DNA of 64,000 nucleotides from an uncultured Planctomycetaceae bacterium (GTDB lineage: Bacteria; Planctomycetota; Planctomycetia; Isosphaerales; Isosphaeraceae). This document shows positions 32,077-43,558 of this stretch, piece after piece. Within the stretch, counting starts at the first letter, position 1. Every line of letters starts with the position of its first letter. The DNA is taken from assembly GCA_963833985.1 (NCBI GenBank), contig CAWIAD010000001.1, positions 2,752,001-2,816,000 of the forward strand, written 5' to 3'. Under the pieces are notes generated by a model. It saw only the letters and a program-made list of their open reading frames with translations, ran no database searches and was not told the DNA's origin. Made by a program: the position numbers and the translations under genes.

Positions 32077-32333
32077 TGAGACGTTGATTCGCCCCGGTGG
32101 GCTGCGTCAGTTCGAGTTCAAGTGCCGGGTCGATTCTGGATGACGCCGGCGCGCAGACCGAACGTCCTGGAGCATCGTGCGTAGCCCCGCTGTTGGGATG
32201 AGTCACCACCGCGGGGACCGCCCCGGCCGCGGCTTTGACATTCGTCGCCGATGTCCCGCGCACTGCATGCAAGAGCGCCCTGCAAGGCTATAATAGCTGC
32301 GAGATCGTTAATTTCCTGTCGAGGAGGTTCGGG

Positions 32334-32606
32334 ATGTCCAGCACCGTCAGGACGGAGCATCCGCACATTGTCCGGCTCGAGGGCGTCTGCGGCGGAGAGC
32401 CCGTGGTTGACGGCCTGCGCGTCAGCGTCCGCCATGTCGCGACCCTTCATCTGCGCGGGGAAACGATCGCCGAGATCGCCGGAGCCCTGGGACTGACGGA
32501 TGCCCAGGTATTCCATGCGCTGAGTTACTATTCCGACCACCGAGAGGAGATCAGCGCGCTGATGGCTCAGGAAGAGCAGGCCCATGCCGAATACTCCGGC
32601 TCCTGA
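32334..32606 (+). CDS. DUF433 antitoxin-like protein
   Basis: HIVR..GVCGGEPVVDGLRVSV...AQVFHALSYY..H.EEI. Confidence 0.9.
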   Translation: MSSTVRTEHPHIVRLEGVCGGEPVVDGLRVSVRHVATLHLRGETIAEIAGALGLTDAQVFHALSYYSDHREEISALMAQEEQAHAEYSGS

Positions 32607-32970
32607 GGGCCTGTTCCTCCGGCTCTACTTCGACCGCCACATCATGACCCGACTGGCCGACGACCTGCGCAACCGTGGACACGATGTGTTGAGGACCGAG
32701 GAGGCCGGCCTCGACACGGCCACGGACGAGCAGCAACTCGCCTTCGCCGCGGGTGAAGGCCGGGCCATTCTGACGTTCAACATCCGCGACTTCGCTCCGC
32801 TCCACAACGAATGGATGGCGGCTGGCCGGTCTCATGCCGGGATCATCGTGTCGCGACAGCTGGGCAGTCGGCAGTACGGCCTGCTATTGCTGCGCGTGCT
32901 TCAGCTGCTCAACCACGACACCGCGGATGAAATGACCGGCAGCATCGTTCACCTCGAACAATTCAAGTAG
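32584..32970 (+). CDS. DUF5615 PIN-like toxin
   Basis: LYFDRH, GHDV, DEQQL, RAILTFNIRDF, HAGII; overlaps the DUF433 gene. Confidence 0.88.
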   Translation: MPNTPAPEGLFLRLYFDRHIMTRLADDLRNRGHDVLRTEEAGLDTATDEQQLAFAAGEGRAILTFNIRDFAPLHNEWMAAGRSHAGIIVSRQLGSRQYGLLLLRVLQLLNHDTADEMTGSIVHLEQFK

Positions 32971-33074: not shown

Positions 33075-34076
33075 TCATCCTGGCGGGTCCGACGTCGCTC
33101 CATCGGGCCGGAAGTCCTTCTCGAACCTCGCCTGAAGCGCGGGCAGGTCACGCTGGAGAACCGCATCCGCGATCCGCTGGCGCATTCTGGGATCATGCAC
33201 GTGGACCTTGAGCGCCGACAGAGCCGCCAGGGCCGTGGTTTCGCTCTCGTCGGCCAGCAGGCCAATCAGGAATTCGGTCGCGGCCGGCAAGCGAAGCATG
33301 ACCAGCGCCAGGAGGGTCGTCTCGCGCAGGACCATGGGCGGCCGGCTCTCCCAGAACCGGCGCAGAGCCTCGAACGCCGCGGGGAGCCGCGACCGGCCGA
33401 GGGCCAGCAGGGCGGCCTCCTGTACGGCGTCGTCATCCCGGTCGAGGAAGCTCGTGACGAGAGGCAGGTTCTCCGCGGCATTGCAGGTCAGCAGACCGCC
33501 CAGGCATTCGGAGAGGACGTCCGGCTCCGGGTCGCCGATCCGGGCCTTCAGCCGCAGCAGCATGCCCGCGGCTTCCGAGCCGTAAGCCCCCAGCGCGCTG
33601 GCGGCCGAGATCCGCACGTCCTTCTCCGGGTCAACGAGGCCATCGACCAGAAGTGTGAGGAGGCCCGGGGCATTGATCCGCGTCAGGGCCACCAGGGCGG
33701 CTGATCGCAACGGCGCAGCGGTGTCCACCTTGCCGCCCCAGACGGGCTCCATCTGGACGTGGCGTGCGGCCTTGAGGAAGACGTCGGGGTCCTCGTGCTC
33801 GAGCCGGTCGAGCGTCTGGATGACCGCCAGCTTCGCCCGGCAGAGCTGGTCGTTGTTGACGGGGTCAATCAGAAAGCGCGCAAAGGCCGAGCACAGCGGC
33901 CCGGCCAGCTCCATGATGCCGCGGTCGCCGGCGATCGCCGCAGCCGCGGCCACAATGAGGTTCGAGCGGTCGGCGATGCCTGCCTTCAGCTCGGCCGTGA
34001 GCTCCGCCGACGCCTCCCGATCGCGGAGCCGGCGCACGGCGGCGAGCCTGTCATCGAGCGAAGCGCGTTTGGCCAT
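33075..34076 (-). CDS. HEAT repeat protein
   Basis: Repeated L.D....VR..A..ALG units. Confidence 0.85.
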   Translation of the reverse strand: MAKRASLDDRLAAVRRLRDREASAELTAELKAGIADRSNLIVAAAAAIAGDRGIMELAGPLCSAFARFLIDPVNNDQLCRAKLAVIQTLDRLEHEDPDVFLKAARHVQMEPVWGGKVDTAAPLRSAALVALTRINAPGLLTLLVDGLVDPEKDVRISAASALGAYGSEAAGMLLRLKARIGDPEPDVLSECLGGLLTCNAAENLPLVTSFLDRDDDAVQEAALLALGRSRLPAAFEALRRFWESRPPMVLRETTLLALVMLRLPAATEFLIGLLADESETTALAALSALKVHVHDPRMRQRIADAVLQRDLPALQARFEKDFRPDGATSDPPG

Positions 34077-34361
34077 GGTCGGAGCATTATACACCAGCGG
34101 CACCGGGATTCGATGCGTCGGGAACTCTGCGTTGGCACGGCGATGGTCTTGCCATCCGGAGAGCCAATCACTCTCATGATTCCCGGGTGCTCGGCACCGT
34201 ATTGATGAAGGCGATTTTAGAGTTCCTCACAAGCCTGGAGTCGAGCCCGCCGCTATCATGGCGCCGTCGATGGGGTCGCGCCATCCGATCCGGCGAGTCC
34301 TTGCGCTCGCCTTCCGTAGCGGTCCCGCAACTCAGCGCTCACCCAGATCCAGGGGGTTCTC

Positions 34362-35480
34362 ATGCATCGGATTTCGACGCGGCGTGAATTCCTGTCAGCC
34401 ACAGTCGGGGCCAGCGCCGCGGGGTGGCTTGTGCCGGGATGGCTGTGCGCGCAGGACGCCAAGGACTCTCCGCAGGTCCAGGAGATCCTCGCCGCCAGCA
34501 TCGGCATTGATATGCACAACCATGTCACGCCCGGCGGGGAACGGGGGGATGCGCGGCGCAAGGAGCAGCAAACGCCTCAGTCCGAGCTCGACCTGGCTGA
34601 GGAGATCCGGCGCTCCGGATTGACGGCCGTCTGCGCCGCCTTCCGCATAGGCTTCAATGACCCCGACCCCTACGGCACCTTCACGAAGGGGCTCACCGCG
34701 ATCGACGGAATGGTGGCCAAGGGAGGCCTGACCCGCGCATTGAACCTCAAGGACCTCCAGGCCGCTCACGAGAAGCGCCAGCCGGCCATCGTCCAGTCGG
34801 TCGAGGGAGCCCATTTCCTGGAAGGGCACCTCGAGCGCGTCGAGGAGATCTACCGGCGCGGGCTGCGGCATCTCCAGTTGCTGCATGACAAGGGCGACAA
34901 GGTCAAGCCGCTCGGCGACATCTACACCGAGCCCGCGAGCCTGGGCGGTTTGACGCCGTTTGGTGCGGACGTCATCAGCGAGTGCAACCGGCTGGGGATC
35001 CTTGTCGACCTTGCGCACGCGAGCCACGACACGGTGCTCGCCGCTCTGAAGGTATCCGCTCATCCGGTGATCGTCTCGCACACCAGCCTCGACACGCGGG
35101 CGGGGAAGAATGCCCGGATGGCCCGGATGATGGCCCCGCGCTTGATCAGCAAGGAAAAGGCCCGGGTGATCGCTGACGCCGGCGGCGTGGTCGGCGTGTG
35201 GACGAAGCTCTCCGATTCGCTGAGCGAGTACATTGGCGGGATCAAGGCTCTTGCCGACGCCATCGGCATCGACCACGTGGGCATGGGCACCGACAGCGAC
35301 ATCCTCTCGGCACGGCCGGGCCAGTCCACGAACGCCGCCTGGACGGGGCTTTCGGGCGGGTTCTTCACGGCGGCCGTGATGGAGATGCTGCAACAGGGCT
35401 TCACGCCCACCGGGATCGCCAAGGTCGGCGGCGGGAACTTCTGCCGGGTCTTCGACCAGGCCACGGCGGTGCGCTCGTGA
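34362..35480 (+). CDS. Membrane dipeptidase (M19) family protein with Tat signal
   Basis: TRREFL signal; DMHNH, VEG, GLTPFG, CNRLGILVDLAHAS, SHT, DHVGMGTD. Confidence 0.9.
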   Translation: MHRISTRREFLSATVGASAAGWLVPGWLCAQDAKDSPQVQEILAASIGIDMHNHVTPGGERGDARRKEQQTPQSELDLAEEIRRSGLTAVCAAFRIGFNDPDPYGTFTKGLTAIDGMVAKGGLTRALNLKDLQAAHEKRQPAIVQSVEGAHFLEGHLERVEEIYRRGLRHLQLLHDKGDKVKPLGDIYTEPASLGGLTPFGADVISECNRLGILVDLAHASHDTVLAALKVSAHPVIVSHTSLDTRAGKNARMARMMAPRLISKEKARVIADAGGVVGVWTKLSDSLSEYIGGIKALADAIGIDHVGMGTDSDILSARPGQSTNAAWTGLSGGFFTAAVMEMLQQGFTPTGIAKVGGGNFCRVFDQATAVRS

Positions 35481-35518
35481 AGTGGAGAGTCAGAATCAGC
35501 AGGATCGTCCTCCAATAA

Positions 35519-35554
35519 CAAACGCCCTCGGGGGTTGAATCCCGAGGGCGTTTG
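35519..35554. terminator. Intrinsic terminator hairpin (next to repeat copy 1)
   Basis: CAAACGCCCTCGGG, loop, CCCGAGGGCGTTTG. Confidence 0.75.
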
Positions 35555-35751
35555 CGGTTGGGGAGCGTTGAAGAGAGGTGATGGATCGAGCAGTCGAGGG
35601 CGCGGGCCTTCGACTCAGTGATGGAACAGGCCGCCCAGCCGCCCGAAGAGCGGGTGGCGGGCGTCGCACGGATCACAGGGCGGGACGGTGCTCACCGGCA
35701 ACGACTGGCTGGAGGCCACGACGCTCTGCGCCGAGGGGAGCACGCCGGCCG
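35547..35751. repeat. Direct repeat copy 1: orphan 3' end of the YTV gene plus downstream flank
   Basis: Ungapped match to 40883..41087 with ~10 mismatches in 205 bp by manual count; encodes ...PPCDPCDARHPLFGRLGGLFHH* on the minus strand. Confidence 0.95.
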
Positions 35752-36297
35752 CGAGGGCGGCGTGCGAGGCCGCTGGACCGACAGAGCCAGGCCACCCGTG
35801 TGAGCGGTAGCCGGTCATCGTCCTGTCCGCCAAGGGTCGACAATAGAGATTTCAGAAAATTCTTGACAGACCGAAATGTTCCAATTAAACTCGGATCATC
35901 CGAATTGGGATAAGGTCTCGGGACAATCCGGGCGCATTTCTGAGCCATTGCAGCTGGTGCCCGGCTTTGGCATGGCATCTGAGGATGGCATGGTCAAATT
36001 GCGAGGGACACGCGCGGCCGTCACGCCCTTTTCCCTAGCGGCAGCCCTGTCCGCGCTCGGCATCGTGGCCGTTCTTTCTGCCGGTTACTACCGTTTTGGC
36101 TCGTTAGCAGTTGCGGCCAGGTACGTAGCTGGCGAGCGACTCCTCGTGGACCAGCCCACAAAATCCTTCGGGTTGCAGAAGCGCGGCAGCCCGTGCACCG
36201 TGTTTTTCCGGCTCATGAACGCGACGGTCGCTTCTGTCCGGATCCTGGCGCAAGGTCTTCTTGCAGATGCATAACGCCGAGGGGTGTCCCTGCTTCG

Positions 36298-37398
36298 CTA
36301 GTGTCCTGAGTTAGAAGTTCGCTCACAAACCCTCGCCACTCGATCTAAGATCATATCAGCATCTGCCGTCCATACGAAAGGCTTGGGATTTACGTTGTGT
36401 TTTGCCAGGAATTCATGGATCGCCTGTTCCAACGCCGCCACGCTCCGGAATACTCCACGGCGAATTCACTTCTCGGTAATCTCCGCGAAGAATCGTTCAA
36501 CCTGGTTCAGCCAAGAGCCGCTGGTGGGAGTGAAATGCAGATGATACTCGGGATGGCGAGCGAACCACCGCTTCACGGCTGGAGCTTTGTGTGTGCCGTA
36601 GTTGTCCATGACGAGGTGAATCTCGACGCCTGGTGCTTTGGCGATCTGGCTATCGATCTCGTTGAGGAATTTGAGGAATTCTTGTTGTCGATGGCGACGG
36701 TAGCATTTGCCAATCACACGACCTGTCGCGACGTCCAAGGCGGCGAACAGCGAAGTCGTCCCATTGCGTACATAATCCGGAGTTCGCCTCTCCGCCTGGC
36801 CAGGCCCCATGGGAAGCAACGGCTGGGTACGGTCCAACGCTTGCACCTGGCTCTTCTCGTCGATGCTCAAGACGATAGCGCGCTCCGGCGGGCTCATATA
36901 CAACCCGACGATGTCGCGGACCTTCTCGATGAAAAAGGGGTCCGTGGAAAGCTTGAACGTCTCGCTGCGGTGAGGCTTCAACTCGAACGCTCGCCAGATA
37001 CGCGAGATCGCTGTCTGAGACAAGCCGACGGCTTCCGCCATGCCCCGAGTGCTCCAATGCGTGGCGGCCTTGGGTTTCTCCTCCAGAGTCTTGGTCACAA
37101 CGGCCTCGACCATTGCGTCCGTGATTTTGCAGGGCGCCCCCGGCCTTGGCTCGTCGGACAGGCCGTCGAGACGATCGAGGAGGAAACGTTTCCGCCATTT
37201 CCCGACCGTCACGACATTCACCCGGAGCTGTGCGGCGACTTCCTGATTATCGAAACCTTGAGCGCAAGCCAAGATGATCCGCGAACGGAGGGCGAGACGC
37301 TGGCTGGTCTTGGGCCGGCGCGACCACGCTTCGAGTTTCTGACGCTCGACATCATTCAAAGTGAGAGTAGCCTTGGGGCGACCACCTTTATTCATCAT
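36298..37398 (-). pseudogene. IS630 transposase with an in-frame TGA at 36466-36468
   Basis: HTH (GKWRKRF..RPGAP), DEKS/DNY/VER catalytic residues; after EITEK* the frame continues IRRGVFRSV...PKPFVWT...SNSGH* to 36298. Confidence 0.9.
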
Positions 37399-37473
37399 AA
37401 ATCTCCTTTGAGAGATTATATGACGAATACATGATAAGTCAAGGTTATTTGGTGAATTTGTAACTCAGGACAC
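36301..37473 (-). mobile_element. IS630-family insertion sequence (1173 bp) with TA target duplication
   Basis: Ends CTA|GTGTCCTGAGTTA ... TAACTCAGGACAC|TAG; TA at 36299-36300 and 37474-37475. Confidence 0.95.
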
Positions 37474-37661
37474 TAGGACCAAACTCCGACCTCGAACTGA
37501 GCATCACCGTTGCTACCGACCGACCCCCGGGCGAGGTTGATGAAACGGTCACGCTCTTTATTGACATTCCGAGGCGGCCGACGCTCGCGCTCCGGATTCG
37601 CGGGCGCATTGGGTAACCCGGTTGCCTTACGAGGGGCTCCGACTGAAGCCGCGGTACAGAT

Positions 37662-38081
37662 ATGAAGATCCTCAGCGTCCGATCGTGCTTTTTAGCCTCC
37701 TGTGTGTGTTTTCTGACCGGCGCCGCGATCGAGCTTGGTGGGCCAGCCACGACGGGGTTGGGAGCCGAGCCGTCATCCCGCGACGTCGGCCCCCTGGATG
37801 TCGAAACGGAACAGTTCTTCGAGTTTCAGCTCGTCAATCGAAGCTCAAAGCCCGTTCGCCTGGTCGGCGCTTCGTCGGGTTGCAGACTAACCTATTGCAT
37901 TCGATTGGATGACATGCCGAAAGTCATTGCAGCGAATGCGAGTGTCCGCATGAACGTTGTTGTGAAACCCCGGAAGGCCGGCAAAGTCTTGGCCCAGATA
38001 ACAGTTTATTCGAATGACGGAGTGCACCCACAACTCGAGCTCAAGGTTTCGGGGACCGCCGTAGAAAAGCAAGGTCACTAG
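37662..38081 (+). CDS. DUF1573-like Ig-fold exported protein
   Basis: Hydrophobic N-terminus; F.LVN.S..PVRLVG..SGC motif; ITVYSND..HPQLELKVSG. Confidence 0.75.
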   Translation: MKILSVRSCFLASCVCFLTGAAIELGGPATTGLGAEPSSRDVGPLDVETEQFFEFQLVNRSSKPVRLVGASSGCRLTYCIRLDDMPKVIAANASVRMNVVVKPRKAGKVLAQITVYSNDGVHPQLELKVSGTAVEKQGH

Positions 38082-38148
38082 GACCTTATTGGGCTCACGA
38101 GCTCACCAAATGGCTCCGTTTTCCGATCCTTTTCAGAGGGAAATCCCG

Positions 38149-38439
38149 GTGTCCACAATGAGAAGCATTATGGCCGGTTGCCTTGCGGGCGTTGGCTTCG
38201 TCTTCCTCTTTCTTGCCACGGTGGCGTTCACGAGCACTGTCGCCCACGCCGCGGTCCAACCGCCGCAGCAAGGCTGTGCGTGCGAGGGAAACACGTGCGA
38301 GTACGACGTAAACAATGGCAATTGCAGACAGCGGACTCCAGACGGCAGTGCGAGTACCTGTCCGGACGCGCAAGACTGTCACAACTGCCAGTGTAAAGAC
38401 ACGCAAAAACCTATGGACTGCGCCTGCCAGGCGATGTAG
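38149..38439 (+). CDS. Small secreted cysteine-rich peptide (10 Cys in the mature part)
   Basis: Signal peptide ending VAHA; mature AVQPPQQGCACEGNTCEYDVNNGNCRQRTPDGSASTCPDAQDCHNCQCKDTQKPMDCACQAM. Confidence 0.8.
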   Translation: MSTMRSIMAGCLAGVGFVFLFLATVAFTSTVAHAAVQPPQQGCACEGNTCEYDVNNGNCRQRTPDGSASTCPDAQDCHNCQCKDTQKPMDCACQAM

Positions 38440-38711
38440 TTGGAACCGGGTAGCCTGGCCCCGTGGAACGAATCATCCGCGATCTCGGGCTCGGAGGTGA
38501 CAGCGCGGGCGACAACGGGTTGCACTGTTCCCCCACTTCCCAGACCGACGAGGCGACAGTGACTTGTAAATAGCGCGCGTCTCCCGAGGGGCTTGGTGAT
38601 GGTTCGTGCAGGGGGGTGACGGAGTTGGGGTACGCAGCGGTGGGGCCGACCCAGAAGGATACCTCGGGCCTGAGGACATATTGAACCACCTGCCTGTAAT
38701 TCGCGCACGAG

Positions 38712-39737
38712 GTGATTCTCATGTGCAAGTTCACGACGTTCTTTTTTTTGCTCACGGCCTGCACGCAGAGCCAAGGCTCGGTCCAGGATGATGGTCCGCT
38801 CAAGGAGCGCGTGCTGACCGAGTACCCGGCCGCACTGAAGCGCCTTGAGGAGCGACTGTCTCGCATCCACATTGAGGGAACCAGCGTACACACCCAACTC
38901 GATCCGCGGACGAAGAAGGAACAGCGAACCTCGATACACTACGTGTTCGCTATCAACGGGCCATCGAGACTGAAGCGCAGCTCGACCAGCTCGGGCACCG
39001 GGGGCAAGGACGAGGGCTATCATTTCGTATCTTGCATCAACCCGAGGTACTCTTTCCGTCTCAGGGCGATCGGCACGGGCAGGCCCTTAGAGATCAAGGA
39101 CTTCGGGGGCGGTCTCGACCCGAATGTCGCCAACGACATGGGTAGTGATTTCGCTCGGTACGTCTTCGCGCCGATCACCTTCAAGGCTATGTCTATCGCG
39201 GAAACGATGGCGCACCCAACGTTCGAGTTAAAGCATGTGAGCGAGGAGATCCATAACGGCAAGAAGTTTCTGAAGATTGAGTTCAGGTGGCACCCGGTCC
39301 AGAAGTATCCCGCCATTCCCGGTTGGTGGTTGGTCAGCCCCGAGGAGGACTGGGTCCTGCGAGAATGGGAATTCCTCGTGGGCCGGCATGAGGACGTCAC
39401 GTGGCATGGCCGGGTTGAGTATGCAGACTCCGTCGATGGAATTCCGCTGCCAATCTCACTCTCCGAGACGCACCCGCTTGAGACGCGGCAATTTAGTTTC
39501 GATCGAGTCCGACCGGGCCCCGTGCCGGAATCGGAGTTTACGCTGACGGCATTCGGCCTGCCCGAGCTCGATCAGCCGGGTCGCAGCCGGTCGACGATGT
39601 CACCCGGACTATGGTTCCTTGCCCTGGGCTGCCTCTTCCTAGCGATCGCGGGGGTCCTCGGGCGCAGGTGGCGCAGTCAGGGCACGCGCCGGATCATGCG
39701 CCTGCGCAGTGAGCGGCCGGTGGAGCGAGGGACATGA
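38712..39737 (+). CDS. Exported hypothetical protein with C-terminal TM anchor
   Basis: N-terminal FFFLLTAC (lipobox-like), beta-rich body, EFTLTAFGLPE then GLWFLALGCLFLAIAGVLGRRWR; overlaps the next start. Confidence 0.8.
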   Translation: MILMCKFTTFFFLLTACTQSQGSVQDDGPLKERVLTEYPAALKRLEERLSRIHIEGTSVHTQLDPRTKKEQRTSIHYVFAINGPSRLKRSSTSSGTGGKDEGYHFVSCINPRYSFRLRAIGTGRPLEIKDFGGGLDPNVANDMGSDFARYVFAPITFKAMSIAETMAHPTFELKHVSEEIHNGKKFLKIEFRWHPVQKYPAIPGWWLVSPEEDWVLREWEFLVGRHEDVTWHGRVEYADSVDGIPLPISLSETHPLETRQFSFDRVRPGPVPESEFTLTAFGLPELDQPGRSRSTMSPGLWFLALGCLFLAIAGVLGRRWRSQGTRRIMRLRSERPVERGT

Positions 39738-40804
39738 GGGGTCGGCGGACGGCGGGAGCGTTCACGCTCATCGAGATGCTGGTCGCGATGGCCACGATCA
39801 GCTTGCTGATCGCGTTCCTACTGCCGGCGGTGCAATCGGCACGCGAGGCCGCCAGGCGAATTCAGTGCGCGGGAAACCTGAGGCAGCTCGGCATTGCGCT
39901 GCACTCGTACCACGACCGCTTCGGCAGCCTGCCACCGGGCCGGATGATGACATACGATCCACGCTACGCCGGCCCACATCCCCCTTGCACATCCACGATC
40001 GTCGACAAGAGCTTCCTGGTCATGATCCTGCCCGATCTCGAGCAGGGCGCACTTGACAGCGCGATCAACCAGTCGCTCACCATCATCGGGTACGAGAACA
40101 GGACAGTTCACGCTGTCGCCGTGAGTACCTTTGCGTGTCCGAGCGATCCTTCGTCCGGCATCGCCCGGGAGATCGACACGGAGAGGATGGCGTCGCACGG
40201 ACTTGCAGCCGAGGGTGAGAACTTGCTAGGCGTGTTCACGAGTTACTCCGGTTGCGCGGGATCAATGTTCGTGAATGCGCTAGCCTCCCCTCCGAGCTGC
40301 GTCGTGCCCCAGGTCACGAGGCGCCAGTCCAACGGTTGCTTCAACGATATTTCACCTATACCGTTCAACTCAATTACAGATGGCCTCGGAAACACCATCT
40401 TCGTGCTCGAGAAGGCCACGACACTGTTCCGCGGCCCGGGCGGCAGTACCAGTCCGACTTACTCCGAATACGGCTGGTACTTCACCGGCAACTGGGGTGA
40501 CACCCTGGCCTCGACGTTCTACCCGATGAATGCCGACAAGGCCATAGCTGCGGCTGCGACGTACGCGCAGGTCTTCTCATCATCGAGCCTGCATCCCGGC
40601 GGCGTGAACGTCCTGATGGGCGATGGTTCCGTGCGATTCATCAAGGAAACAATCGACACGTGGCCATGTGATAGGTTCACCGGCAATCCCAGCGGTGCTG
40701 CCCAGATGAAGGACGGATCGTGGACGAACCTCCCTCCCTCGGGCGTCTGGCAGGCGCTCGCCACGCGCGCCGATGGCGAGGTCATCGGCTCCGATTCGTA
40801 TTGA
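39734..40804 (+). CDS. DUF1559 prepilin-type protein
   Basis: AFTLIEMLV...[40 protein letters not shown]. Confidence 0.95.
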   Translation: MRGRRTAGAFTLIEMLVAMATISLLIAFLLPAVQSAREAARRIQCAGNLRQLGIALHSYHDRFGSLPPGRMMTYDPRYAGPHPPCTSTIVDKSFLVMILPDLEQGALDSAINQSLTIIGYENRTVHAVAVSTFACPSDPSSGIAREIDTERMASHGLAAEGENLLGVFTSYSGCAGSMFVNALASPPSCVVPQVTRRQSNGCFNDISPIPFNSITDGLGNTIFVLEKATTLFRGPGGSTSPTYSEYGWYFTGNWGDTLASTFYPMNADKAIAAAATYAQVFSSSSLHPGGVNVLMGDGSVRFIKETIDTWPCDRFTGNPSGAAQMKDGSWTNLPPSGVWQALATRADGEVIGSDSY

Positions 40805-40853
40805 CGGCCCGCGGAGTATTCAGCGCCGGCTGACGTCTCTCGGTCCCCGAATG

Positions 40854-40890
40854 AAAAAACGCCTGCCGGATGAGTTCCGGCAGGCGTTTG
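40854..40890 (-). terminator. Intrinsic terminator of the YTV gene (possibly bidirectional)
   Basis: AAACGCCTGCCGGA-TGAGT-TCCGGCAGGCGTTT with an A6 tract at 40854-40859. Confidence 0.8.
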
Positions 40891-41087
40891 CAGTTGGGGA
40901 GCGTTGAAGAGAGGTGATCGATCGAGCAGTCGAGGGCGCGGGCCCGCGACTCAGTGATGGAACAGGCCGCCCAGCCGCCCGAACAGCGGGTGGCGGGCGT
41001 CGCACGGATCGCAGGGCGGGACGGTGCACACCGGCAGCGACTGGCTGGAGGCCACGACGCTCTGCGACGAGGGGAGCACGGCGGCCG
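40883..41087. repeat. Direct repeat copy 2: 3' end of the intact YTV gene plus flank
   Basis: Matches 35547..35751 at a constant offset of 5336 bp. Confidence 0.95.
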
Positions 41088-43221
41088 GCTCGCAGTAGAC
41101 CGTCACCGGCACCTGGACGCAGACCTCGACCGGGACCTGCTTGCAGATGGTCTTCGGCACGCAGACCGTCTTCATCTCGGTCACCTGCCTGGGCACCGTC
41201 ACCGGGCACACGATCGTCTTCGGCTCGACGATTTGCTGGCAGGTGGTGTAGGGAACCTTGCGCACGCACTGCACCGTCTGCATCTCGCAGACGGTCTGGC
41301 AGACGGTCTTCACGCAGGGCTCGGTCACCATCTCGCAAACGGTCTGGCAGACCTTCTTGACGCAGGGCTCGGCCACGGTTCGGCAGGTGGTGACGGGCAC
41401 CTGGCAGGTTCGCGTTTCACACACGTTGCGGCAGGTCGTCACCGGAATCTGCTTGACCTGCTGCTCGGTCACCATGCGGCAGACGGTCACCGGCACGCGC
41501 TTGACGCACGTCTGCGGAACCATCCGGGTGACGGTGCAGGGGACCTGCTTGCACACCGTCTCGCGGATGGTCCGGGTGACGGTGTAGGGCACCTGCCTGT
41601 ACTGCTTCTCAGGCACATAGCTGGTGACCGTGTACGGGTCCTGGCGGTACTCGGTCTTGTTGCACATCTTGGTCACGCAGACCGGCACGCAGCGGTTCAC
41701 CGTGCGGGCCTCGGTGCTGCACACGGTGTAGGGAACCGTCTTCATGCAGGTTTCCTGCACCATGCGGCAGGTGGTGACGGGCACCATCTTCACCTGCTCC
41801 TGCGCCACGTACTCGCAGACGGTGTAGGGAACCTGTTTGGTCATCGTTTCCTGGACCATGCGGCAGGTGGTGACGGGCACCATCTTCACCTGCTCCTCGG
41901 CCACCATGGTGCAGGTGGTGACGGGCACCTGCTCGGTGATGGTCGTGGGGACCTGGCGGCAGACGGTGACAGGGACCTGCTTGCGGATGGTCTGCGATTC
42001 GTAGACCGTGCAGCAGACGTTCTCGACGACGGTCCGCGGGCACCAGACCTTCTTCTCGCAAACCGTCGGGGGCGCCTGCACCAGGCAGCCGTTGATGCAG
42101 ACGGTCTTGCCGGGCGAGCAGGTTTGCTGCGTCACCCACTCGCCGCACTCGCGCGTGACCTGCTTGGTGACGGTGTGCGGCACGCAGACCTGCTCGCAGA
42201 CGTCGCGGTACTGGGTTTCCTGGACGGTATTGCAGACCGTCTTGCACACGGTCTTCATGGTCGTGGTCTGGACCGGCCGGCAAACCGTGTAGCGGCACTC
42301 CTTCATGACCGTCTCCCGCACGGGGCGGCAGACGGTATACGAGCAGGTCTTGATCTCGGTCCGCTGCACGGGCACGCGCACGGTGTAGCGGCATTCCTTC
42401 ATGACCGTCTCGCTCACGGGGCGGCACACCGTGTAGGGCACCTGCTTGTAGGCCGTCTGGCGCACCGGCACCATCACCGTGGTCGGCTGGCTTTGCAGCA
42501 CCGTGGTCTGCACCGGCACCTGCACGGTGAAGGGCACCGTACGGTAGCAGGTTTTCTGGACCGGCCGGCAGACGGTGTAGCACACCGTCTTGTAGCACGT
42601 TTCCTGGATCGGGCGGCAGACCGTCTGGTTCACCGTCCGCACGATGGTCTCGCTCACGGGTCGGCAGACCGTGTAGGTCACCTCCTTGAACGAGGTCTCG
42701 CGCACCGGCCGGCACACGTTGTAGACGCAGGTCTTGATCGCCGTCTCCCGGACCGGGCGGCTGACCGTGTACGACCTGGTCTCGTAATGGGTCTCGCGCA
42801 CCGGGCGGTAGACGGTGTAGGTCACGTCTTTCCAGATCGTCCGCTGCACCGGCCGTTGCACGGTGTACTGGACCTCACGGCTCACCGTGCGATACACCGG
42901 ACGGTTGACCGTGTAGGCCTCCTCACGCACGTGCTGCTCCACGACGTTGCGGGTCGTCGTGATGGTCCGCGGCTGCATCACCGTCTCGCAGACGGTCCGC
43001 ACGCAGGGAACCTGCTGCGTCTCATAAACGGTCTCCTGCACGTTCCGGAGTACCGTTTGACGCTGGAGTTGATACTGGACATGCCCGCCACACTCCTGGG
43101 GCACGGGGCAAACTCGGCACGAGGCACCACCAGCATAACTCGCTGCCTGGGCCGGGCGCGCGGTAACCCCCAGCCCCAGTCCCAGGGCAAGCAGGGCAAC
43201 CAACGGTAGTTTTCTCAACAT
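40951..43221 (-). CDS. Secreted Cys/Val/Thr/Pro-rich YTV-type repeat protein (putative envelope protein)
   Basis: Signal peptide (AQA|A); 16-aa periodic YTVCRPVxET / VPVTTCRMVxE repeats. Confidence 0.88.
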   Translation of the reverse strand: MLRKLPLVALLALGLGLGVTARPAQAASYAGGASCRVCPVPQECGGHVQYQLQRQTVLRNVQETVYETQQVPCVRTVCETVMQPRTITTTRNVVEQHVREEAYTVNRPVYRTVSREVQYTVQRPVQRTIWKDVTYTVYRPVRETHYETRSYTVSRPVRETAIKTCVYNVCRPVRETSFKEVTYTVCRPVSETIVRTVNQTVCRPIQETCYKTVCYTVCRPVQKTCYRTVPFTVQVPVQTTVLQSQPTTVMVPVRQTAYKQVPYTVCRPVSETVMKECRYTVRVPVQRTEIKTCSYTVCRPVRETVMKECRYTVCRPVQTTTMKTVCKTVCNTVQETQYRDVCEQVCVPHTVTKQVTRECGEWVTQQTCSPGKTVCINGCLVQAPPTVCEKKVWCPRTVVENVCCTVYESQTIRKQVPVTVCRQVPTTITEQVPVTTCTMVAEEQVKMVPVTTCRMVQETMTKQVPYTVCEYVAQEQVKMVPVTTCRMVQETCMKTVPYTVCSTEARTVNRCVPVCVTKMCNKTEYRQDPYTVTSYVPEKQYRQVPYTVTRTIRETVCKQVPCTVTRMVPQTCVKRVPVTVCRMVTEQQVKQIPVTTCRNVCETRTCQVPVTTCRTVAEPCVKKVCQTVCEMVTEPCVKTVCQTVCEMQTVQCVRKVPYTTCQQIVEPKTIVCPVTVPRQVTEMKTVCVPKTICKQVPVEVCVQVPVTVYCEPAAVLPSSQSVVASSQSLPVCTVPPCDPCDARHPLFGRLGGLFHH

Positions 43222-43558
43222 CGGACGCTCCACGAGGTACACTCCCGACGAACTTCAGCGCTCACCGATTCACGGACCATGAGACTCCGCCTCCGGCCCG
43301 GAACCGCCAACTCACAGATAAGCTTCGTCACGCCAAACCCAGTGGCTTAAAGAACTTTCTCCAAATTTCCCAATGGTCTTATTTTCCCAAAACGCAATGT
43401 TTGCCCAGATGTTACGCCAGTCATGCAAACCGCCCTCACTACCGTAAAATGCGGCACGAGCCGGAGAGCAGAGTGTTTCACTCACTCGTGAAAAGCGCGC
43501 ACCTCGACCGCAGGCTCTGGTCGATGGTTGCCTCTGAGCACGGCCTGGCGGCGACTCG

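Follow-up and report, generated by a model that had tools for sequence, protein, structure and literature searches.

A five-gene insert between two copies of a YTV gene end in an Isosphaeraceae genome, a likely scar of homologous recombination

In the window analyzed here, a stretch of 64,000 nucleotides (G000:C1:2752001-2816000) from the genome of an uncultured Planctomycetaceae bacterium of the family Isosphaeraceae, the 3' end of a gene for a cysteine-rich protein with YTV repeats is present twice, and five cargo genes lie between the two copies. How did this cargo come to stand between an intact gene and an orphan copy of that gene's own end? Our results suggest that the structure is likely the scar of the host's own recombination rather than the work of a dedicated docking enzyme. 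We moderately favour one form of this explanation, an insertion-duplication in which re-circularised DNA of a relative entered by a single homologous crossover in the YTV tail. The genome (G000, 10.16 Mb in two contigs of 3.5 and 6.6 Mb) was compared with 13 other genomes of its genus and with a family set of 121 genomes that includes it; many of these genomes are incomplete.

The two copies, at 35547-35751 and 40883-41087, form an ungapped direct repeat of 205 bp with 10 mismatches (95.1% identity), which takes in 45 codons and the stop of the YTV gene together with 68 nt of its flank, just as an earlier note on this DNA had described it. A BLASTN search found these two copies and no others in the whole genome, ruling out a dispersed repeat. 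A looser likeness, over 245 nt at 89%, extends past the repeat and reaches two strong hairpins, which are different from each other and both intact. The insert proper measures 5131 bp, instead of the 5.3 kb given earlier for the cassette. The parts of the structure are as follows:

35507..35554, minus strand: terminator-like hairpin 3' of the orphan tail (folding z -8.7)
35547..35751, minus strand: orphan YTV 3' end, with 45 codons, stop (35615-35617) and 3' flank
35752..40882, no strand: inserted cargo, 5131 bp, not found at the YTV site in the 13 genus relatives
40843..40889, minus strand: hairpin between the convergent DUF1559 and YTV genes, by comparison with relatives the more diverged terminator (folding z -7.3)
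40883..41087, minus strand: live YTV 3' end (genome-wide BLASTN)
40951..43242, minus strand: intact YTV-repeat cysteine-rich gene, 763 aa (Pfam YTV; conserved in the genus at 79-91% identity)

A mis-assembly that joined the alleles of two strains could imitate such a structure. The genome carries 3.9% contamination, and some of its genes are read in two frames, namely comEC, a glucanotransferase gene, the first cargo gene and an ECF sigma-TPR gene (at G000:C2:3102822-3103702, at L102:5767-7961 and in the window near 36250 and 47287), a sign that the assembly may contain indel errors. Moreover, the contigs examined from eight read runs, small shares in which mostly the insertion sequence IS630 was matched, leave the junctions uncovered. 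However, the assembly consists of only two contigs, the copies end in two different intact hairpins, the orphan begins mid-gene after unique DNA, and similar structures are found in other assemblies, that of the relative G004 among them. We consider a mis-assembly highly improbable.

All 13 genus relatives have a single YTV tail, and both the cargo and the M19 dipeptidase gene that precedes the repeat are missing from their YTV site. The same cargo without the duplication was not found there in these 13 genomes. No second tail was seen downstream in the 12 genus loci scanned, nor a second YTV copy on one contig among 120 family genomes; of the 26 family genomes with a YTV match, only G062 has two, on different contigs (many genomes being incomplete). 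Moreover, the orphan hairpin is nearer to the relatives' terminators than the hairpin of the live copy in 13/13 comparisons. This suggests that the orphan end with its terminator (35507..35554) is probably the host's original, and that the terminator 3' of the live YTV gene (40843..40889) probably arrived with the cargo.

These results bear out the footprint of an insertion at a gene's 3' end which the earlier note had recognized. They do not support its further proposal that the YTV end is a site of integration or cassette exchange, that is, a reusable attachment site: no second copy was found in the genus relatives or on any single contig of the family genomes, the cargo family is unflanked elsewhere, and about 20 unrelated host genes share the geometry with no common junction sequence, as detailed below.

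The geometry fits insertion-duplication, in which arbitrary host segments are duplicated in direct orientation around foreign DNA. The donor would have been a piece of a close relative's chromosome with the YTV gene end, its terminator and the adjoining five-gene operon. Closed into a circle, this piece would have integrated by one homologous crossover within the YTV tail, leaving the YTV gene whole and the cargo 3' of it, and displacing the host's former gene end and terminator by 5 kb to make the orphan. IS630 would have inserted afterwards. A one-sided homologous anchor combined with an illegitimate joint inside the gene end would give an identical product, indistinguishable here. The earlier note had left three routes of entry side by side: a recombinase acting in trans, one since lost, or homologous recombination. 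The last is the best fit, and a lost or in-trans recombinase stands as the rival weighed below.

A donor with the cargo at this place is plausible, because the HEAT-repeat gene is commonly the neighbour of YTV in the genus and the gap between the two genes (0.2-2.6 kb in genus relatives) varies in content. This gap accommodates insertions, and the duplication is peculiar to the present genome among the genomes searched. The two neighbouring genes are:

33075..34103, minus strand: HEAT-repeat gene, downstream neighbour of YTV in 11/13 genus relatives
34362..35480, plus strand: M19 dipeptidase gene, outside the repeat

Since the dipeptidase gene is missing at the site in the relatives, it points to an earlier or separate gain; it has a host-like GC content at third codon positions (GC3), no flanking repeat and a 72% paralogue at C1:617733. 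A DUF433/DUF5615 pair is inserted in the window at 32235-32970, between the DUF362 and HEAT genes, which are adjacent in some relatives.

What, then, was inserted? The cargo has a GC of 0.594 vs 0.65, and the GC3 of its genes is 0.65-0.77, whereas the flanking genes have 0.87 and 0.91 and the median for the genome is 0.83, in agreement with the excess of A/T-ending codons that had been noticed before. The count of five same-strand genes, all on the plus strand, was likewise right, but the first is split by IS630, which had been missed, and is also frameshifted. The features of the insert are:

35863..35891, plus strand: sigma-70-like promoter consensus at the head of the cargo operon, TTGACA-17-TAAACT (a pattern match only; 3 found in the region vs 1.3 expected)
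35990..37616, plus strand: first cargo gene, DUF1573-like by its homologues, with a frameshift near 36250 and split by IS630 (homology to G082)
36298..37476, minus strand: IS630, a later insertion (NCBIfam IS630, 250 bits; inverted ends)
37662..38081, plus strand: DUF1573 Ig-like protein with a hydrophobic N-terminus (Pfam PF07610, above cut-off)
38152..38439, plus strand: 95-aa peptide with a signal-like N-terminus and a 10-cysteine core, hypervariable across homologous modules
38721..39737, plus strand: 338-aa protein with a predicted LolA-superfamily fold and a C-terminal membrane helix (model pLDDT 90.8)
39734..40804, plus strand: DUF1559 prepilin-like protein with an H-X9-DG C-terminus, of a module-associated subfamily (Pfam, NCBIfam, homologous modules)

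Both parts of the first gene align to one reading frame of the homologous module of G082; its N-terminal part has no Pfam match, and its frameshift may be an assembly error. IS630 (1.18 kb) has 34-nt inverted ends with CTAG at each end, a DDE transposase gene (37398-36298) and a TA-containing target, and is multi-copy, with seven other full-length copies in the genome at 99.2-99.8%; a premature stop at 36466-36468 is unique to this copy among the eight. It is a passenger acquired later than the cargo, and the insert without it is about 3.95 kb long. A single internal insertion sequence, with host gene sequence in the flanks, is not the layout of a composite transposon, which has one at both cargo ends. 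As claimed earlier, no tyrosine or serine recombinase is encoded in or near the insert, the nearest being 42.6 kb off, but because of IS630 the cassette does contain a DDE transposase, which had been overlooked.

The 95-aa peptide has no Pfam or NCBIfam family. The model of the 338-aa protein best matches a DUF1329 protein (Z 14.3, rmsd 4.4, 204 residues aligned) and LolA3 (Z 13.7), a predicted likeness of fold which reveals no function. This protein represents a large unannotated family (4782 clusters at E<=0.001; in the Atlas mostly Planctomycetota) with no sequence match to any solved structure. Judged from its sequence, the cargo appears to be a five-gene block for predicted exported proteins, and we infer that it may serve to export or display a variable peptide rich in disulfides.

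We rejected the possibility that the cargo is a self-mobile cassette with ends of its own. The 338-aa protein was matched in 34/121 family genomes (the present one counted), but in only 2/13 other genus genomes. The best-matching module, in G082, which belongs to another genus, has all five genes in the same order at 33-67% identity. None of 20 homologous module loci has flanking repeats, two of them showing tandem module copies, and none of ten further loci (several on short contigs) is repeat-bracketed, which indicates a module without ends of its own. The recurrent operon (window 35990-40804; L081-L100, L118, L120, L193-L200) consists of 2-3 DUF1573-like genes, the peptide, the LolA-fold protein and the DUF1559 subfamily. 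Across 13 modules the hydrophobic leader of the peptide is constant, often ending in A-D-E-P-L, and the cysteine core is freely variable. A peptidase C39 or TlpA gene adjoins related cargo, and two further loci of the present genome hold partial or related modules. When homologues of three other cargos were followed to 10 loci in relatives, one locus was repeat-flanked, via a duplicated antitoxin gene. At L185:377-4995 (G006:C1030) an antitoxin-gene repeat of 343 bp (96%) surrounds a PIN pair and other small genes; one antitoxin copy only has kept its MazF-like partner, a family judged by eye from the translation. A literature search, for which subscription journals were mostly outside reach, found no paper on the cargo module or on such an insert pattern in planctomycetes.

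The YTV locus has many counterparts in its own genome. Self-comparison gave 264 repeat pairs within 20 kb, and the pairs without a distant copy comprised 101 direct and 0 inverted ones. A gene is paired with its own fragment in 47 rows, some of which overlap: 15 are 3' ends with downstream cargo, 14 are 5' ends with upstream cargo, 14 are internal, and in the other 4 the polarity is reversed. Among the 33 gene-end rows, 29 have their cargo placed so that the host gene remains intact. The duplicated pieces, which are 3', 5', internal and whole-gene, come from unrelated genes. Filtering for an identity of at least 88% and a host GC3 of at least 0.8 left 20 loci, with repeats of 86-897 bp and cargo of 243-5673 bp. 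No match to PF00589 or PF07508 lies inside any of them, and tadA is the only one with such a match within 5 kb. Hosts named by Pfam are a glucanotransferase, a phosphoesterase, a BON protein, a fabF-type synthase, comM, dprA, hsdM and Hsp70, and the cargo so named includes PIN, ParE-type, TacA/GNAT and DUF433/DUF5615 pairs and DUF1559 modules. Repeats bracket 7/21 PIN toxin loci (one PilT-like match excluded) vs 9/150 random small genes. When five loci were searched in five relatives each, the host gene was matched and host plus cargo were never in one piece; G009 has a clean empty site at the phosphoesterase. Three hsdM 5' ends, three Hsp70 5' ends and two overlapping comM duplications, with cargo between them, are found at L178 (G000:C1:1716000-1735999), L179 and L177. 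Homologues of ComEC (in two frames), DprA and ComM are encoded in the genome.

The differences between the copies bear on another explanation, in which the initial event was a local tandem duplication, followed by arrival of the cargo or trimming of the second copy, with the copies diverging in place. Direct-only orientation would be equally expected from such a duplication, and the derived base is in the orphan at 4/6 coding differences of the YTV tails. However, pooled copy differences were 142 synonymous to 83 non-synonymous vs the 40-46% expected under duplicate decay (p<=1e-7); with the largest locus removed, the ratio was still 87 to 69 (p 6e-5 to 7e-3). At 12 terminal loci (comM, hsdM, tadA and YTV left out) they were 60 to 34, and the 801 codons compared contained no indels. 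This synonymous lean resembles the pattern of alleles from another strain. In addition, the stretch between the copies is always occupied by cargo, which is low in GC, and no remnant of a longer second YTV gene is seen. We regard a prior tandem duplication as quite improbable.

Similar scars occur in relatives. In G004, which is 99% complete in 3 contigs, a 178-bp fae 3' end surrounds a PIN pair and a DUF1501 3' end is present three times. PIN loci are bracketed in 2/15 cases in G004 and in 5/20 (of 27 matches) in G002, in two of the G002 cases by unclassified repeats of 1.3-1.6 kb. Among 20 spaced 20-kb windows of G004, two of them shifted off loci already fetched, 3 had a direct repeat and 1 a repeated gene 3' end, compared to 3.9 and 1.3 expected from G000. 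In two other genera no PIN locus was bracketed, 0/4 in G114 (of 8 matches) and 0/1 in G106 (of 5). Extra dprA 3' pieces were present in 6/12 genus genomes with a match, the intact gene being on the same contig in 3. The dprA 3' end occurs in up to four copies with different cargo (L117:5062-11316, which is G000:C1:1163k-1169k; L161, L162, L163, L166, L167, L169, L170).

How firmly can a dedicated enzyme be set aside? The rival explanation is that a site-specific element entered at YTV codon 718/719 with a replacement 3' end, its integrase being later lost or acting in trans. Its geometry would be that of icd/icdC (PMC13626634). Several observations weigh against a single homologous crossover. 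The orphan junction at 35751 has 8-bp inverted repeat arms around a 10-bp spacer (P 0.005 vs background), a dyad symmetry like that of a recombinase site. The same geometry is seen with an integrase beside it at a tadA-like deaminase gene (L106, G000:C2:2133000-2140000), where the 3' end is duplicated over 102-110 bp at 98-100% and a tyrosine integrase adjoins the orphan copy 819 bp off, a conventional island end. Moreover, dprA orphans in four species (G000, G007, G008 and G003) begin at codon 215-218 after a common CACTAG-like motif, of the form CACTAG..AG..GG|TTT-like. The orphan and live YTV tails differ by 3 synonymous and 3 non-synonymous changes, which are uninformative alone. When comM, hsdM, tadA and YTV were dropped and the internal rows kept, the lean was weak (69 to 60, p 0.0015-0.046), and the subsets were picked after the data were seen. 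An element with a replacement gene end also predicts a synonymous lean, so that the lean cannot separate the two explanations. Finally, the genome-wide rows of host genes and fragments rest on a crude gene model and not on a proper gene caller, and no donor for the YTV cargo was found among the genomes searched, nor was a circle junction or an empty site of the same species seen in the read-run contigs.

The genome does have 13 tyrosine and 12 large serine recombinase matches. However, 11/12 of the serine recombinase genes are copies of a single element lodged in a group II intron, a 2.0-kb unit (~600 aa) in the reverse transcriptase gene, at G000:C1:773938-778015 and ten more places. The intron is multi-copy and the 11 recombinase units are near-identical, some intron copies being without the unit. 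We rejected this recombinase as a helper, as it sits in the intron and has no link to the YTV site. Furthermore, the cargo holds no recombinase remnant and opens with a promoter and operon, the YTV site is not reused in 13/13 relatives, and a separate lost enzyme would have to be assumed for every one of the ~20 target genes. Averaged over 27 junctions, the dyad score stays at the background level (4.4 vs 4.2). A common junction motif was also rejected: CCGGCC/GGCCGG occurs at 6/27 host junctions vs 3.2% background and CGGCCG at 5/27 vs 2.4%, a hint at most, since these were among eight motifs tested once the data had been inspected, and some of the rows overlap one another.

At dprA the case is different. 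The shared junction motif suggests that codon 215-218 is likely a true recombinase site, and both routes may operate in the genus. Other dprA orphans, however, begin at six other codons, and no recombinase was found in the neighbouring frames scanned at the dprA loci. The parts available of PMC12637031 and bioRxiv 10.1101/2021.11.05.467528 hold nothing on dprA as a target. Because of the dyad at the YTV junction together with the tadA and dprA cases, we consider a site-specific element unlikely but of real weight. The crossover of a re-circularised donor piece in the YTV tail is the moderately favoured origin of the scar.

This class of mechanism is already known, and the single locus is an ordinary recombination scar. 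Its value is that of a marker, and the density of the scars, their toxin-antitoxin link and the peptide module deserve a systematic look. About 20 loci in one genome, together with those in relatives, suggest that single-crossover capture, rare in the laboratory, accounts for a visible share of accessory genes in these large genomes. Such scars would allow gene gains to be dated and oriented even in the absence of an integrase, and would be a genomic hint of DNA exchange in planctomycetes, in which natural DNA uptake is not known to be established. It is a tentative and rather doubtful extension that this genus regularly gains genes through gene-end cassettes free of recombinases, via loop-out, transfer and docking at the same gene. 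If so, the unit would consist of cargo joined to 0.1-0.9 kb of a core gene, looped out by recombination between the repeats. Docking would leave the gene unbroken, and arrays would arise as at dprA, hsdM and Hsp70. The cargo would then be toxin-antitoxin pairs and an undescribed export module, in cassettes to which integrase-based island finders are blind. The present cargo offers a lead of its own, with a hypervariable cysteine-rich peptide, predicted to be exported, at the centre of a conserved operon that also includes a member of a large unannotated family with a LolA-like predicted fold.

Four known systems resemble this locus. The prophage e14 has its own integrase and a fixed crossover core, and no such integrase lies in the YTV insert. 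Like the YTV locus, e14 at icd leaves an intact gene, an insert and a C-terminal pseudogene fragment (icdC), but it is a prophage of 15 kb, excised when the SOS response is induced (PMC13626634). The unconventional circularizable structures and the microcin H47 island of E. coli have long imperfect direct repeats and no recombinase (PMC7843796, PMC5426353), features which the YTV insert shares. The H47 repeats are 148 and 144 bp long and the cargo serves a secreted peptide; there, however, excised circles have been shown by PCR, whereas the present insert is known from sequence alone and its cargo family is unflanked elsewhere.

The orphan 3' ends of Vibrio, for which an anchored route was invoked, are also close: in the Rhs and Vibrio type VI secretion effector-immunity arrays an anchor of upstream homology displaces the old 3' end downstream, and the arrays build up by repeated events, much as at dprA, hsdM and Hsp70 here (PMC5361080). 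In those arrays the new 3' end alters the toxin, whereas here the tail gained belongs to an ordinary gene, is nearly identical to the allele that it replaced, and has no relation to the cargo. Finally, an experimental system in E. coli, for which homology-facilitated illegitimate recombination is covered as well, yielded 60 clones, of which 56 had arisen by a single crossover with a re-circularised donor; the 14 that were sequenced carried duplications of 109-950 bp (PMC3240628). As at the 20 loci described here (86-897 bp), gene ends were duplicated around foreign DNA with no dedicated recombinase. That system used an engineered plasmid, with a rate of ~6e-9 per recipient, in contrast to the present genome, in which the process is inferred from natural scars that are frequent across the genome.

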